DNA of 64,000 bases from a virus, in the IMG/VR virus record IMGVR_UViG_3300013113_000555, positions 6,851-70,850 of that record; one strand, 5' to 3'. Each line of letters opens with the position of its first letter. Position 1 is the first letter of the stretch. The notes under the pieces are model-generated. The model searched no databases and was not told the origin of the DNA. It saw only the letters and a program-made list of their open reading frames with translations. Shown here in pieces: positions 724 through 39,900 of this stretch. The translations under genes and the position numbers were made by a program.

Positions 724-746
724 AAAGTTGCAGGTAACTTTTTTGT
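724..746 (+). terminator. Weak intrinsic terminator candidate after dCMP deaminase
   Basis: AAAAGTTG-CAGG-TAACTTTT hairpin followed by TTG TT; AT-rich and weak. Confidence 0.35.
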
Positions 747-756
747 TAGTTTGAGG

Positions 757-770
757 GGTGTATAATAATA
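757..770 (+). promoter_or_regulatory. Promoter candidate GGTGTATAATAATA (-10 TATAAT at 761-766)
   Basis: Perfect TATAAT just before a structured non-coding region; no TTGACA at 17 bp spacing. A related GGTGTATTTAT lies upstream of the tail tube gene. Confidence 0.55.
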
Positions 771-771
771 G

Positions 772-1001
772 TGGCTGGAGATAAAGAGCGAATTTTTATT
801 CACCGTTAAAGCGGCACACTCCGGTCAATAATTACAAGTAGACTGATAGATAAAATTTAATTAAAGTTTGTTTATAACAAAAAGATTTATTACTCGTAAA
901 TCTACCAGTCTCTATAACAAAACGTGTCGCTTAACCGTACAATACCCCCCAGTATTTGTATTAACAAAGTAGAGGTTAGTATAAATACTTGGGGTTTTTT
1001 T
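772..1001 (+). ncRNA. Candidate structured RNA / 5' leader of nrdJ (three-way junction, long-range pairing, long hairpins, terminator)
   Basis: Hand-derived pairings: 772-780/819-827; hairpins 781-799 and 803-814; 840-851/900-911 (11 of 12 bp); 805-817/924-935 (12 bp, one bulge); 947-965/975-994. G-U pairs form on the + strand only. Confidence 0.6.
947..1001 (+). terminator. Intrinsic terminator-like hairpin in front of the nrdJ ribosome-binding site
   Basis: 19-bp stem (2 G-U, 1 bulge), 9-nt loop, followed by T7 (995-1001); AGGAG RBS at 1018-1022. Confidence 0.7.
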
Positions 1002-1033
1002 ATTAATGCAGGACAACAGGAGATTAATATAAA

Positions 1034-3550
1034 ATGTCTAGGTTTACTAATTCGTTTTCAGAAGAAACGTGGTATCAAAAATATAAGTTTAGTGGTGATG
1101 AGAGCGTAGAATGTACTTGGAAAAGAACAGCAGTCGATTTAGCTTCTGTAGAAAAAGACATAGTTGTTAGAAAAAGATGCGAAGAAGATTTTTATGATAT
1201 TTTAGAGGATTTTAAGTTTGTTCCTGGTGGAAGAATTACAAGTAATGCTGGCACAGGATTAAAGGGAACTACTTATATTAATTGTTTTGTAGATGGTTTT
1301 GAAGGTGCAGACCTAGACTCCATAGAGGGCATCTATGCGACTCTAACCAAGCAAGCACAGATACTCAAGAGTGAAGGCGGCTATGGCTTCTGTGCCAACG
1401 TAATGCGTCCTTGTGGTTCTCATATTGGTGGTATTGCTAATCAATCTCCGGGAGCAGTAAAGTTTTTGGAACTATGGGATAAGTCGTCAGAAATTATTAC
1501 AGCAGGTTCAAGTAAAAAATCAAGAAAAGATCAAAAGAATTTTATTAGAAAGGGTGCTCAAATGGTAACTATGAGTTGCTGGCATCCTGATATTATTGAA
1601 TATATTGAAGCAAAAAAAACTCCCGGCCGTCTTTCTAAATTTAATATGTCTATTTTGTGTACAGATGAATTTATGGAAGCTGTTAATAAAGACAGGTCTT
1701 GGAATTTACGTTTTCCAAATTACGAAGAATATCCAAAACTCTATAAAAAAGAGTGGGATGGAGATATTGATAAATGGGTAGAAGTAGCAGAAGCTAGTAA
1801 CGAAAGTGATAGCGAAGCTTGTGTAACGCATCATACTTTTGATTCTGCAAAAGAACTTTGGAATCTAATTATGGACAATACATACAACAGAAATGAACCC
1901 GGTGTTCTTTTTGTTGACAATATGAATAGAATGAATAATCTTCATTATTGTGAACATATTAATGCTACAAACCCCTGTGGAGAACAAGTGTTACCTATTG
2001 GTGGGGTGTGCTTGCTAGGTTCTATTAATCTAGTTCATTTTATTGATCCAGAAAAGAAAGATTGGAAATACGATGAACTAGAATCTGTTATCAATAAAGC
2101 AGTCAGATTTATGGATAATGTTAACGATAAGACAAATGTTCCATTAAAATCCCAAAAGAAAAACCTAATGGATAAAAGAAGAATAGGTTTAGGAGTTATG
2201 GGTTATGGTTCTGCCCTTATTATGGCTAGAGTTAAATATGGTAGTAAAAAGGCTCTAGAAATGACAGAGCATCTTATGAATTTTATTACCAATGAGGCTT
2301 ACAAAGCGTCTGCTTTATTGGCAAAAGAAAAAGGTGCTTTTCCTCTTTATGATGAAGAAAAATATTTAAGTGGAGAGTTTGTTAAAAATCTTAATGTTGA
2401 TACTATTGGATTGATTAAAAAGTACGGAATGAGAAACTCTCATGTCACATCTATTCAACCGACTGGAAATAGCTCCTGCTATGCAAACCTTGTTAGCGGC
2501 GGTCTGGAACCCTTATTTATGCATGGGTACTTTAGAACATCTATTCAGCCAACACATCCTGATGGTCTTGGAGTGCCTAAGAATGTCGATTGGGAAAACA
2601 AGAAGTTCGATTTGCCTGCTGATGCCTCCGCCATAGAGTGGGAGTGGGTAAAAGAGGGGGATGAGAACCTTTTGGCAACTAAATTTGAAGGAAAAGTATG
2701 GAAATTTGACCGCACAAGAGGGCTTTTAAAGGAAGAATGGATAGAGGATTATGGTGTATCTTATTTAAGGGGAATTGATAAATGGAACGCAGAAGCAGCT
2801 TGGGCTTCTTGCACTATGGACTTAGATGTTGACGCTCATGTAAACACTATGTCTATATTTGCCAAATGGGTTGACTCTGCTATTTCTAAAACTATTAATC
2901 TACCAAATGAATATCCTTATGAAGATTTCCAAGATGTTTATTTTAAGGCTTGGAAAAAAGGAATCAAAGGATTTACTACTTATCGAGCAGGAACAATGAC
3001 AGCGGTTCTTTCTGCTAGTTCTTCTATAGAAAATAAAGAAGAATCTGGGCTTCCAGAAGAAAGACCAAAAGAGTTAGATTGTGATGTTTATCACATTAAG
3101 GTAAAGGGTGAAGAATATTTTGTTCTTGTAGGTCTTTATAAAGGGGAAGTATACGAAGTTTTTGCTGGTAAGAACGGCTTTATTGATAAAAAGATTAAAA
3201 AAGGCACTATTATTAAGCTGGGGCGTCCAAAAGGTGTTTACAAAGCTATTTTGGAAGACGGTCTTGAACTATCTCCTATCAATCAAACCTGTAGTGAAGA
3301 AGAAGATGCTCTAACTAGAATGACCTCTACAGCATTAAGAAGTGGTGCTGATATACAAATGATTGTTCAACAGTTAGAAAAAGTTAAAGGCGATATGAAT
3401 TCTTTTGCCAAAAGCATGTCTAGAGCATTGAAAAAATATATTCCAGACGGTGCAAAAGAAGAAGGGTGTTGTCCAGAATGTGGTGGTAAAACTCTAATCA
3501 GGCAAGAAGGTTGTGTTCAGTGTACTTCTTGCGGTTGGTCAAAATGTTAA
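1034..3550 (+). CDS. nrdJ: Ribonucleotide reductase, class II (adenosylcobalamin-dependent), with C-terminal TSCPD-like domain and Zn ribbon
   Basis: PGGRI...NCFV, TNPCGEQ (catalytic NxCxE), CLLGSINL, RRIGLGVMG, IQPTGN, DSAISKTINLP and KGxTTYR motifs; C-terminal CPECG...EGCVQCTSCGWSKC. No nrdB-like gene adjacent. Confidence 0.9.
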   Translation: MSRFTNSFSEETWYQKYKFSGDESVECTWKRTAVDLASVEKDIVVRKRCEEDFYDILEDFKFVPGGRITSNAGTGLKGTTYINCFVDGFEGADLDSIEGIYATLTKQAQILKSEGGYGFCANVMRPCGSHIGGIANQSPGAVKFLELWDKSSEIITAGSSKKSRKDQKNFIRKGAQMVTMSCWHPDIIEYIEAKKTPGRLSKFNMSILCTDEFMEAVNKDRSWNLRFPNYEEYPKLYKKEWDGDIDKWVEVAEASNESDSEACVTHHTFDSAKELWNLIMDNTYNRNEPGVLFVDNMNRMNNLHYCEHINATNPCGEQVLPIGGVCLLGSINLVHFIDPEKKDWKYDELESVINKAVRFMDNVNDKTNVPLKSQKKNLMDKRRIGLGVMGYGSALIMARVKYGSKKALEMTEHLMNFITNEAYKASALLAKEKGAFPLYDEEKYLSGEFVKNLNVDTIGLIKKYGMRNSHVTSIQPTGNSSCYANLVSGGLEPLFMHGYFRTSIQPTHPDGLGVPKNVDWENKKFDLPADASAIEWEWVKEGDENLLATKFEGKVWKFDRTRGLLKEEWIEDYGVSYLRGIDKWNAEAAWASCTMDLDVDAHVNTMSIFAKWVDSAISKTINLPNEYPYEDFQDVYFKAWKKGIKGFTTYRAGTMTAVLSASSSIENKEESGLPEERPKELDCDVYHIKVKGEEYFVLVGLYKGEVYEVFAGKNGFIDKKIKKGTIIKLGRPKGVYKAILEDGLELSPINQTCSEEEDALTRMTSTALRSGADIQMIVQQLEKVKGDMNSFAKSMSRALKKYIPDGAKEEGCCPECGGKTLIRQEGCVQCTSCGWSKC

Positions 3551-3562
3551 AGAGGTATTAAA

Positions 3563-4486
3563 ATGGACTATAATAATCCAGAAGATTTATTAGAAGCTTA
3601 TGAAAACGGGCTTCTAGGTGCTGAGTGTGATCCAGAAGATGTTAGAAAGCTTCTTGGTGAGTTGCCTATGCCTATGTTTGGTGCAGCAGCATATGAGCTA
3701 GAAGAAAGTGGAAAGGGTAAGTTAAGCCTTCCTTTTAAGTCTTTGTTAAAATTTGATCCTAATTTTGGACCTAGTGAAAGACAAACTACTGGCGATTGTG
3801 TTTCACACGCTATTAGAAATGCTATAGATATTACTAGAGCAGTAGAGATTGATATAAAGGGTGAGACAGAAGCTTTTATTACTAGAAGTGCCACTGAAAA
3901 TGTTTATCAGTCAAGAAGTCATATGGGACAAGGAATGACCTGTAGTGGAGGCTCTAGATACGTTAATTCACAAGGTGGTGTTTTACTAAGAAAGAAATAT
4001 CCTGATTGTGATCTTTCAAAATATAATTCTTCTCTTGGTGCTAAAAAAAGAATTCCAAAATCTATTTATATTAATGAAGCATCAAAACATCCTGTAGAAA
4101 CCATATCTCTTATATCTTCTATCGAGGAAGCAAGAGATGCTATTGCTAATGGTTATGGACTAGCAGGTTGTAGCGGTATCGGCTTTAGTAGCACAAGAGA
4201 CAAGTATGGTATAGCCAAAAGAGGCAAAGGCTGGAATCACGCTATGGCTTGGATTGCTTGTGATGATACCGGAGAAGTTTATGATGAAATGCTATTCTTG
4301 ATACAGAACAGTTGGGGTCCGTGGAATAGAGGGCCAAAACGTCATGGACAACCAGATGGAAGTTTTTGGGTAAGAGAAAAAGATGCAAAATCTATTTTAG
4401 CTGCAAGAGGAACATTTGCTTACAGTTCTGTAAAGGGTTTTCCCGCCAAACAATTACCAGATTACGGACTAGGGGGATGGTCATGA
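3563..4486 (+). CDS. Papain-like (C1 family) cysteine peptidase
   Basis: Q-x4-D-C (RQTTGDCVSHA), NHAM and QNSWG motifs give the oxyanion Gln and the Cys/His/Asn triad. Confidence 0.82.
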   Translation: MDYNNPEDLLEAYENGLLGAECDPEDVRKLLGELPMPMFGAAAYELEESGKGKLSLPFKSLLKFDPNFGPSERQTTGDCVSHAIRNAIDITRAVEIDIKGETEAFITRSATENVYQSRSHMGQGMTCSGGSRYVNSQGGVLLRKKYPDCDLSKYNSSLGAKKRIPKSIYINEASKHPVETISLISSIEEARDAIANGYGLAGCSGIGFSSTRDKYGIAKRGKGWNHAMAWIACDDTGEVYDEMLFLIQNSWGPWNRGPKRHGQPDGSFWVREKDAKSILAARGTFAYSSVKGFPAKQLPDYGLGGWS

Positions 4487-36900: not shown

Positions 36901-39900
36901 GACACAACATCAACAGAATTAGGAATAGGTTTACTGTTTGTATCATAGCCCCACCCCTGAATCATTAAAGGGCCACGAAGTGCCATAAAACGATAATCAT
37001 CTGTATAATCATCATTTTTTTGAACACTCCATCCAGAAATCCCTTGGTCTTCTTTTCTAGCTAAAATTTCAAAATCATGACCGCTAGAAGCTGCGTCTGA
37101 TCTTTCTGTCAACAAAACTGAGTTTGGATTAGATAAAGGGTCTAAAAATGCTTGAGTTACACTAAGAGGTGTATAATCTTGAGAAGGAGGTTGTGTGCTA
37201 GAAGTTTTAAAACTATTACATTCACCAGTTTGATAAGAAATAAACCGAGGTAGTCCACCATCACCGCTTTTAGATACAGGTCTTATAATACCATCCCAAC
37301 TCATAATGGCAGTTTTTGCATAGCCACTATCAGTAGGTATAGCAACATTTAACTCTTGAATATTTTGGCTATTTATTTCTACTCTACCACTATTGGTTAT
37401 TCTACCAATCAATGTATGATGTGCTGATTTGGGAGCCTTTGCAGTTCTACCTATCTTATCTTCTAAAAATTGTTTAGTTCTATCAAAGCTAAAAGAAGAT
37501 TTTTCTAATCTTTTAGCTCTAACATTTCTCATGTTTTGAAGTCTGGTCTGACCTATTCTTTTTAGTCTTTCAGCATTGCCCTTAGAAAACTTACCAAACT
37601 GCGGTGTATAAGTGCTAAACTGATATGAAGTAGTGAATCCTCCTGCACCAACACTAACATTAACATTGGTTAAGTTAGGACCACCCGAACCAGTCCAACC
37701 TGATTTAACAACCTTGACAAATGAGCGACCATCAGTTACAGGTTCTAAAGTTGCATTTCTTGTTTCTATATAGTCTTGTAAACCAGCAGAATAATTTAAC
37801 TCAGCACCTAAAGGAATTTCTGGAAAACCAGCTAAAGTTACAGAACCTCTCTCTGATTGCCTCATCTGTGTTGCAGCATCTTGAACCTTTTGTAAAGCAG
37901 CTTGTTCCATGATTTGATCGCTACCGTATTCCCAAGGAACTAAACCGTCATCATTTTCTAATGACACCGAACCGGGTGCTCCCGCAACTCCAAAAGGTCC
38001 ATATACCTCTAAGTTATTTTGAACACAACAAAATGCGGAGTCAGGAAGTGCCGCTGATGGAAACAAACCATCAACAAAGCTACCCTTTTCAACACCTTGA
38101 TTTAAACCAGTTGGAATATCAGTGAGGGTTGCTGCTGCGTTTAAGTTTTCTTTAAAAGCAAGTGCATCAAATGCAGGAAGATATGCTGAAACTTGTGTAA
38201 ATGGAGCAGGAATAGTAATATTGAAATAAATAGAATCACCACTAGGATCAAGATTGTTTCCAAGAACCCACTTATCATTTATTTGTGCCTTTACCCAAAT
38301 ACTAGGATCAGAAATACCTGTTCCTGTTCCATTAGTTATATAGTCTTGATCTCCAATATAAGAGGGGTCTCCAGTAGCATAAGTACCACTACCCAAAAGC
38401 AATCCACTTAGCAAAGGAAACCTTAATATTGGTTGATATAAACCTTGTTCATCTCTAAAGAAATCTGTAGCAGGACTATTATGAGCTAAACCCAATACCT
38501 GACTAGTTCCATCTAAAACCCAAGCTTGATTTGATGTATCATGAGTGAACCTATAGGTGGGTGGTACTCCACTACCGAAAGCTGATGCTGAATCTAGCTT
38601 ATAACATACAGGAATACCATCGCTATTTACTAAAAACTGTTTTCCATAATAATCTTGAGCATAAGACTTTACAAAGTCATAAATTAAGTCAGAATCTTTT
38701 GCAGTGTTTTCTTCAAACCCTCTATCTTTATTATCGTCTTGGGGTCTTGGGATTACAATATCACCTACAGGAACATTGCCTTTTGCAGCCTCAAGATTAG
38801 CAGCATTATCTCTTTCAGGCTTATTTCCGATTGTACTAAGGTGCTCGCCTAGCTCTCCACCTAAATCACCACTCATAGTAGCAGTCATTGATTTAAAGCT
38901 AGAGTAGTCCATAAGTGCTGCTCTAATCTCAGGCTCAGTAACCCAAGCTGTTGCTGGTGTTCCACTACCAATAGGAGAATTAAGACTTTTATTTAATTTA
39001 TCAAATTCTAATTCAACTCTATAGTATCCAGAAGGATGAATTTCTGCTTTTAATAGTCGATTGTCTGAATTTACGCCCCAAAAAGGCTGAATAGGAGAAT
39101 CGCCTTGAATGCCACTTTCACTAGTTAATTGATATGGTTGAAGTTTTTTCCCACCCATAATAAATATTGAAGTGTTCTCATTTCTTACTTCCTTACCTTT
39201 TGTAAATGATATAATACCCCCTTCTGCTTGAGGATAAGCTAGTTGTCTATTAAGAATAAAGGTATCTAAAGCGTTGGACGCAGGAGGATTAGCTCTACTT
39301 ACTGTTCTTACTTTTATTATCTTTTTTAAACCAGCAGAAAAAGTAGGCTGTAATTCTATATAGTAGTCACAGCCTGCATCAGAACAAACCTGACTTATTA
39401 ACTCTGACATGCTAATTGTTGGACCAGAAATCCTATAATAGTTTGGAGAAATAGGTATTTCACTTAAATCAATTAAATAATCAGATTTTAAATTACCTAA
39501 GTTATCAAAACCATTGCTTGCAAGACGACCATATGTGGAACTAGAAGAACCCACATATATAAGTCTATTATCTTTTAAATATTTTTGATCGCAACTAGGA
39601 CCGGGTGCAATAGGATTAGAACAAAGTGAATGTATAGCAGCCTTTATATCCTTCCATAACATACCTCTTTCATTTGCTATCAAGCTCAAGGTGTTTTGTT
39701 CAGAAGTTCCTCCAAATCTTTTAGAACTAGGGCATGTATTCGCACTAGTGCATATTTGACCTTTAGATAATGTTTCTATAAAACCATAAGCATTAATTAA
39801 ATTATAAACATTTTCTGTATCACCGGGATAATCATTTACAATTATTTGAGTATTGTCTAATATTAATCTGGGGTCAGAAATGCTAACAGAGAAAAGAGGG

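Follow-up and report, generated by a model that had tools for sequence, protein, structure and literature searches.

A family of structured RNA leaders, previously uncatalogued, was found in uncultured marine phages upstream of the genes encoding ribonucleotide reductases (RNRs). Some 59 copies, with 43 distinct P1 helices, were recovered from viral and marine metagenome contigs by pattern scans and a covariance model. An RNR gene was the first or second ORF downstream in all the copies confirmed by the model (55 of 55) and in all those coming from an independent scan (4 of 4). The leader most likely controls the amount of RNR made by the phage. In the window (the whole stretch of 64,000 nucleotides analysed in this work), our preferred reading, held with a little better than even confidence, is that positions 757-1001 are the promoter-proximal leader of the nrdJ operon and act in cis as a signal-dependent attenuator.

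The IMG/VR virus record from which the window was taken spans 90 kb and was estimated to be 58% complete. The gap between a dCMP deaminase gene and nrdJ (322 nt) contained, at unchanged coordinates, all the features listed in the earlier note: the TATAAT box (761-766), P1 with its two G-U pairs, the middle domain, the 12-bp long-range pairing and the 19-bp terminator stem followed by U7 (Table 1). The nrdJ product matched the Pfam families Ribonuc_red_lgC (7.4e-110), Ribonuc_red_lgN and TSCPD, corresponding to a class II RNR with a TSCPD C-terminus. The next gene (3563-4486), encoding a 307-aa protein without Pfam or PHROG match, was conserved (68-97% identity) directly 3' of nrdJ in nearly all nrdJ-type contigs reaching that far, and was absent in the L013 group.

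Table 1. Features of the leader region in the window and small basic ORFs of related contigs (L numbers). Coordinates are those of the window unless a contig is named.
Feature	Position	Strand	Pairing, basis or remark
dCMP deaminase gene	ends 711		upstream neighbour of the leader
AU-rich inverted repeat AAAAGUUGCAGGUAACUUUU, then U run	724-746	+	sequence
GGTGTATAAT, promoter-like -10 element	757-766	+	sequence, homologues
P1 5' strand UGGCUGGAG	772-780 (core 774-780, GCUGGAG)	+	pairs with 819-827
J1/2 junction AUAAAGA	781-787	+	conserved, probably single-stranded
P2 hairpin	788-806 (788-793 with 798-806)	+	homology; putative register in the window
Pseudoknot 5' strand UAAAGCGGCAC	807-817 (extends to 805)	+	pairs with 924-935
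P1 3' strand CUCCGGUCA	819-827 (core 819-825, CUCCGGU)	+	pairs with 772-780
P3, long irregular sequence-variable hairpin domain with A-rich internal stretch	840-911	+	minimum free energy fold
Pseudoknot 3' strand GUGUCGCUUAAC	924-935 (core 924-932)	+	pairs with 805-817
Intrinsic terminator	946-1001 (stem 946-965/975-994, 19 bp; U7 995-1001)	+	fold
nrdJ RBS AGGAG	1018-1022	+	sequence
nrdJ, putative regulated gene	1034-3550 (ATG at 1034)	+	ORF and Pfam
Small basic ORF	L302:2128-2337	-	
Small basic ORF	L227:11016-11216	-	
Small basic ORF	L296:7846-8082	-	
Small basic ORF	L368:2092-2394	+	
Small basic ORF	L314:6765-7091	+	

Folding of the + strand was stronger (z = -3.28, equalled in 1 of 200 shuffles) than that of the - strand (z = -2.08). 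G-U pairs, which are compatible with the + strand only, were common in P1 and in the pseudoknot helix across the homologues; this shows that the element is on the sense strand of the RNR gene and bears out what the wobble pairs of the window alone had suggested. Each genome carried a single copy in sense orientation, and a search for a second copy elsewhere in the genome found none.

Relatives were first gathered by nrdJ protein similarity alone (67-96% identity), ignoring the RNA. Eight of the nine distinct relatives obtained in this way carried the element, and it was located upstream of nrdJ in the groups L002/3/4/12, L005, L006, L013/14/15/19, L016/17, L021 and L029. The sequence between the conserved blocks largely differed among relatives; the blocks that recurred were GGTGTA, a G-rich strand with its complementary strand, CGUUAAAGCGRCAC, then GUGUYGCUU after another 97-125 nt, and a terminator. 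Pattern scans based on these blocks revealed copies in IMG/VR, in two contigs binned into a marine metagenome-assembled genome (MAG) and in numerous contigs from TARA and further marine metagenomes. Of the pattern-scan copies, 55 were accepted by a covariance model built on the 5' domain, which rejected chance matches, and four further copies were obtained with a scan needing neither GGTGTA nor the 3' strand. An exact 14-mer scan gave mostly chance matches and one new member. The two MAG contigs (L334 and L337; JABXKB010000076 and JABXKB010000078) were 16 kb long, had been binned into a marine Promethearchaeota MAG and carried a phage-type leader: the nrdJ of L337 was 86% identical to that of the window, and the leader of L334 did not differ from the one in the L003 phage contigs. 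Both are most likely mis-binned phage contigs.

The contigs L007-L011, L031 and L032 encoded an nrdJ 71-75% identical and lacked the leader. In these phages nrdJ was joined to the upstream unit, following after a short gap a gene encoding a Cys-rich deaminase-like protein; as it directly follows the preceding gene, the element was either lost or never gained in that lineage.

No match to the elements of the window, L216 or L299 was detected by BLASTN in the GenBank phages (50,697 records), and the closest cultured RNRs were at most 55% identical. In Pelagibacter phage HTVC008M, nrdA starts 73 nt after a primase gene and no element was present there. The earlier note had recognised no known riboswitch consensus, and the databases agreed: none of the 4227 models of Rfam 15 matched the 64-kb window at gathering thresholds, and a search of positions 650-1100 with E up to 10 gave only chance miRNA/sRNA matches to the terminator hairpin. 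A literature search brought up no description of the element.

Covariation was strong in P1. In the alignment of the covariance model finally used (R2), 94.0% of the cells of the 7-bp core were paired (79.2% in shuffles), with compensatory changes in 7 of 7 pairs and a covariation score of 0.656 (0.329 in shuffles) that was matched by 0 of 500 shuffles; controls in which the partner strand was slid by 1-3 columns were paired in no more than 54%. Our own count of the core over the 43 distinct helices gave 97-100% pairing at 5 of the 7 positions, with several pair types each. R2 was built from a seed of members with the same spacer and replaced a first model (R1) which mixed registers (62.6% paired). 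No structure emerged when the 5' domain was aligned with MAFFT and analysed with RNAalifold, since the spacer that follows CAC is variable.

The long-range helix was conserved in sequence as well as in pairing. AAAGC..CAC was invariant in all members, and the 9-bp core AAGCRRCAC/GUGUYGCUU was paired in all 38 distinct strand pairs. Core position 5 was G-C in 33 of them and A-U in 5, with neither G-U nor A-C observed, under a search pattern that permitted all four combinations; the A-U form was seen in three or more clades (L002/L003/L337, L407 and L411). At core position 4, G-U alternated with A-U. The same helix was recovered by RNAalifold on unfitted MAFFT alignments. Its 5' strand sits inside the P1 loop, and in most members only 1-3 nt separate CAC from the 3' strand of P1; therefore the two crossing helices, both supported and separated by a short linker, form an H-type pseudoknot and are not alternatives to each other. 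Their spacing fits a coaxial arrangement. A test for conservation and covariation in related phages had been set beforehand as one able to refute the proposal; the helices were conserved, covaried and were tied to five RNR lineages. What did not survive the comparison was the argument from mutually exclusive helices, as the competing hairpins were not conserved and P1 and the long-range helix can coexist. The hairpins at 781-799 and 803-814, for instance, appeared in the single-sequence minimum free energy fold but not in the homologues, the second being lost wherever GCGG reads GCGA.

The remaining parts of the fold were more variable. AUAAAGA, or a close variant, was located directly 3' of the P1 5' strand in most clades. 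P2 was assigned through members in which this hairpin is unambiguous (L401, with GCGAAA/UUUCGC, L013, L016 and L407); in the window it would consist of GCG/CGU closing pairs, a CAC bulge, AAU/AUU pairs and a UUUU loop. Its length was very variable, and its closing pairs always adjoined UAAAGCG. P3 was closed by 840-845/906-911, with inner stems. In the folds of all 53 distinct homologous regions, a closing stem of 5 bp or more connected the first third to the last (mean z = -1.66 vs. mononucleotide shuffles), and the L216 clade showed a few compensatory changes. Positions 868-885 of the window and their P3 equivalents in L006, L021, L016 and L029 were unstructured and A/CAA-rich (AAUAACAAUAACAAAC in L021), resembling ARN-type Hfq- or S1-binding sequences.

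TATAAT lies within GGTGTATAAT, and a nearly invariant GGTG was found just 5' of it. GGTGTA (AGTGTA once) was kept also in the members coming from searches in which it was not a requirement. A start 6-8 nt 3' of TATAAT would coincide with the beginning of P1, so that transcription may begin near 772-774, judging from the sequence. Counter to a simple -10 reading, one clade reads TATTAG. The motif was not general in this phage (8 matches with at most one mismatch vs. 5 expected), and the other exact copy of GGTGTATAAT, at 37168, was inside a coding region. In the L216 clade (L216:1689-1711, and the corresponding site in L279, L317 and L318) a second motif, AGTGTAAT, was present 13 nt 5' of GGTGTATAAT and may have arisen by tandem duplication of the promoter-like element. 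NrdR boxes, tandem 16-bp palindromes with the consensus acaCwAtATaTwGtgt, were also considered: inspection of GGTGTATAAT and its flanks by eye against this consensus, a weak test, showed no palindrome and no ACAC...GTGT pair.

Just 5' of the promoter-like motif is the AU-rich inverted repeat, which can also be written AAAAGTTGCAGGTAACTTTT plus a T run. The same repeat, of the form AAAAGUUG...CAACUUUU, was present 14-15 nt 5' of GGTGTA in L006, L016, L029, L221, L257, L353 and L378, thus recurring at a constant distance in several contigs of the nrdJ and nrdA types; in the L272/L299 clade a CAACTTTT motif was found 4 nt 5' of GGTGTA. From its sequence, the repeat is probably a weak terminator or insulator closing the upstream dCMP deaminase unit, though it could also be a palindrome for protein binding.

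At the other end of the leader, a GC-containing hairpin followed by a U run, as in intrinsic terminators, was present in the window and in most members, where it was strong (-13 to -23 kcal/mol, U5-U8) and began 12-20 nt 3' of the pseudoknot 3' strand. A scan with a terminator consensus missed that of the window because its loop is 9 nt long. The RBS of the RNR gene was found 15-30 nt after the terminator, which leaves no room for another promoter, and thus every RNR transcript coming from this side must pass the terminator. The L302, L367 and L347 types had no separate hairpin: U6-U7 was located directly 3' of the pseudoknot strand, followed by the RBS of a small ORF. In these types the long-range helix has A's upstream and U's downstream and resembles the stem of a terminator whose structured loop is very large. 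In L302-type members the pseudoknot helix with U7 could itself act as a terminator.

Taken together, P1 encloses the AUAAAGA junction, the variable P2 and the strand UAAAGCGRCAC, and past the long and variable P3, GUGUYGCUU pairs back into the P1 loop to complete the H-type pseudoknot. The folded leader would set, in cis, the number of polymerases reading through the terminator. Action in cis on readthrough is suggested by the position and orientation of the element, by the lack of room for a second promoter and by the variety of its expression platforms.

Three candidate pairings that might switch the terminator were considered. When the nascent RNA was folded without the 3' arm of the terminator, in most members the 5' arm paired with the 5' strand of P1. 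This candidate antiterminator was rejected: cognate pairs were no better (-6.2 kcal/mol) than non-cognate ones (-7.0 kcal/mol; permutation p ~1), and the pairing is a generic attraction between G-rich and C-rich strands. GGUGUA is complementary to UAC(G)ACC, a conserved sequence at the foot of the terminator (AUACC in the window, 942-946), and this complementarity was seen in most clades. With a transcription start 5' of 757, the resulting helix (P0) would act as a classic ON switch. The P0 reading is possible but not supported, the pairing between GGUGUA and the terminator flank being weak (mean -4.3 kcal/mol, rank 33 of 140 permutations). Pairing of 937-945 with the 5' strand of the terminator, as suggested in the earlier note, was restricted to the lineage of the window and L005. 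The first two failed their tests, and thus no conserved RNA-only switch was demonstrated, and no conserved antiterminator was found among the homologues.

The proposal of a riboswitch or attenuator was therefore borne out in part. A conserved, structured and covarying RNA resembling an aptamer domain (7 of 7 pairs in P1; the G-C/A-U swap in the pseudoknot) was found in the putative 5' UTR of functionally coherent genes, as all 59 copies precede RNR genes. A platform competing with this domain was the part that did not hold: the terminator was there, but no antiterminator accompanied it, and the competing hairpins were not conserved. Sensing of a cobalamin-related signal, also proposed at the outset, is unlikely, since the same RNA with the same platform precedes B12-independent class Ia nrdA genes. 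The identity with the cobalamin riboswitch was likewise rejected, with no match to RF00174 and the element present before class Ia nrdA/nrdB as well as class II RNRs.

The RNR genes downstream, reached directly or after one small ORF, belonged to five lineages at most 33% identical, three of class II and two of class Ia. The class II lineages were the nrdJ type of the window, a second TSCPD-bearing type (33% identical to the first), and a third with an RNR-II insertion domain and no significant BLAST similarity to the other four. The two class Ia nrdA lineages, with ATP cones and nrdB partners, were 30% identical to each other. The RNA shared by these lineages is therefore far better conserved than the proteins encoded after it. 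Three nrdJ genes were oversized and probably carry intein insertions: L029:2992-6396 and the first ORFs downstream of the element in contigs L353 and L378 encode 1134, 1324 and more than 1100 aa, vs. about 840 elsewhere.

In several clades the ORF between the leader and the RNR gene encoded a small, very basic protein (67-111 aa; motif (F/Y)E(I/V)xxxVRDKxGNPTG, including VRDKNGNPTG, and a Lys/Arg-rich tail) with no match in Pfam or PHROG. It was missing from most nrdJ- and nrdA-type members. It was rejected as an obligatory partner of the leader, having no homologue in the genome of the window (a record 58% complete).

The signal read by an attenuator of this kind could be of several sorts. 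That it is a small molecule tied to the supply of DNA precursors, the leader being a riboswitch, is possible and is put forward only tentatively; a small-molecule ligand is made plausible by the conserved junctions, the large aptamer-like fold, the association with one gene class and the precedent of the 2'-deoxyguanosine riboswitches, whereas the missing antiterminator counts against a textbook riboswitch mechanism. A protein or polymerase contact could be the signal instead, and a protein might just as well recognise the invariant sequence of the pseudoknot helix. A more specific version, in which a new phage aptamer responds to a deoxynucleotide or another DNA-precursor signal (dATP or dNTPs, a deoxynucleoside, or the NTP/dNTP balance, for example) and gates readthrough into the RNR genes, appears quite unlikely. 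Antitermination or autoregulation dependent on a factor is unlikely too, if a shade less so: a phage or host protein, or RNA polymerase, would recognise the invariant pseudoknot and the junctions and allow passage through the terminator, and the leader would be a timing device rather than a metabolite sensor. Conservation of the pseudoknot helix and junctions as sequence, beyond pairing, argues for such a factor, as do the failure to find an RNA-only antiterminator, the strong terminator directly before an essential gene and the conserved basic ORF between element and RNR in several clades. This ORF is nevertheless absent from the genome of the window and from most nrdJ- and nrdA-type members and has no database match, and no candidate protein was found; moreover, the RNR itself cannot be the common partner, given five unrelated lineages.

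The remaining alternatives dispense with a signal acting on RNR expression. A stand-alone phage sRNA of about 230 nt, with its own promoter and terminator and a role in trans or in structure, would be bracketed much as observed by the promoter-like element and the strong terminator, and the upstream hairpin with its U run would isolate the unit; RNR would then be expressed by leakage of the terminator, and the linkage would be positional. This is distinctly improbable: linkage and orientation to RNR genes were 100% across five lineages, a separate RNR promoter has no room after the terminator, and L302-type members, without a separate terminator hairpin, run into the next RBS. Least probable of the readings weighed here is a constitutive module sensing nothing, in which a structured 5' end protects the mRNA and a leaky terminator fixes a low level of expression. 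5'-terminal stems do stabilise bacterial mRNAs, P1 starts at the putative 5' end and no switch was found, but a stabiliser needs no invariant 9-bp pseudoknot, conserved junctions or some 170 nt kept across unrelated RNRs, and the terminators are strong.

A precedent for control of RNR by a DNA-precursor-related metabolite through RNA is provided by the 2'-deoxyguanosine riboswitches, variants of the purine riboswitch known before RNR genes in Mesoplasma florum (2'-dG-I) and from marine metagenomes (2'-dG-II). They share with the phage element a structured 5' leader before RNR genes, a terminator platform and a marine habitat, but they are three-way junctions of about 70 nt with a loop-loop contact, whereas the phage element has about 170 nt plus the terminator and an H-type topology, and gave no purine or 2'-dG match with E up to 10. 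The adenosylcobalamin riboswitch (RF00174), which precedes nrd operons in some bacteria and represses B12-independent RNRs, is similar in its large aptamer, its long-range tertiary pairing and its association with RNR; it differs in that the phage element had no Rfam match and precedes B12-dependent and B12-independent RNRs with the same platform. A core pseudoknot fold with conserved junction strands is also seen in the SAM-II/SAM-V, preQ1, fluoride and two-subdomain ZTP riboswitches, the last with a variable-length insertion between the pairing partners as well, but there was no similarity to these H-type pseudoknot riboswitches or to ZTP in sequence or model, the phage element is much larger, and no strand shared between aptamer and terminator was found in it.

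Among factor-dependent systems, HK022 put, lambda nut/boxB and EAR, compared here by description, are similar in being promoter-proximal structured RNAs followed by a terminator to be overcome, and in being phage-encoded; unlike the phage leader, they affect numerous terminators downstream and have no tie to a single gene class. Other factor-dependent precedents are lambda N-nut and the RAT/LicT-type antiterminators. A catalogue of 8,495 candidate structured RNA motifs from IMG/VR ('DNAVirus_X', 29-151 nt), based on the same data source, may include parts of the phage element, and mentions neither RNR nor riboswitches (PMC10690425). In papers on marine phages only glutamine riboswitches were reported, and none were found in pelagimyophages (PMC9004378, PMC7029224).

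The element is well defined and short enough for in-line probing and termination assays, for which the natural compensatory mutants serve as controls. RNR determines how many DNA building blocks are available and is among the commonest metabolic genes in marine viruses; to our knowledge, essentially nothing is known of its control in phages. The presence of a nearly unchanged RNA before five unrelated RNR types points to a shared regulatory input that bypasses the enzyme. If this input is a metabolite, the leader would represent a new riboswitch class, one of the few borne by phages; if it is a protein or the polymerase, a new antitermination system. Should a deoxynucleotide or another DNA-precursor signal be sensed, the leader would be the first natural RNA sensor of its kind, and these phages would own a dNTP feedback loop independent of the class of RNR.
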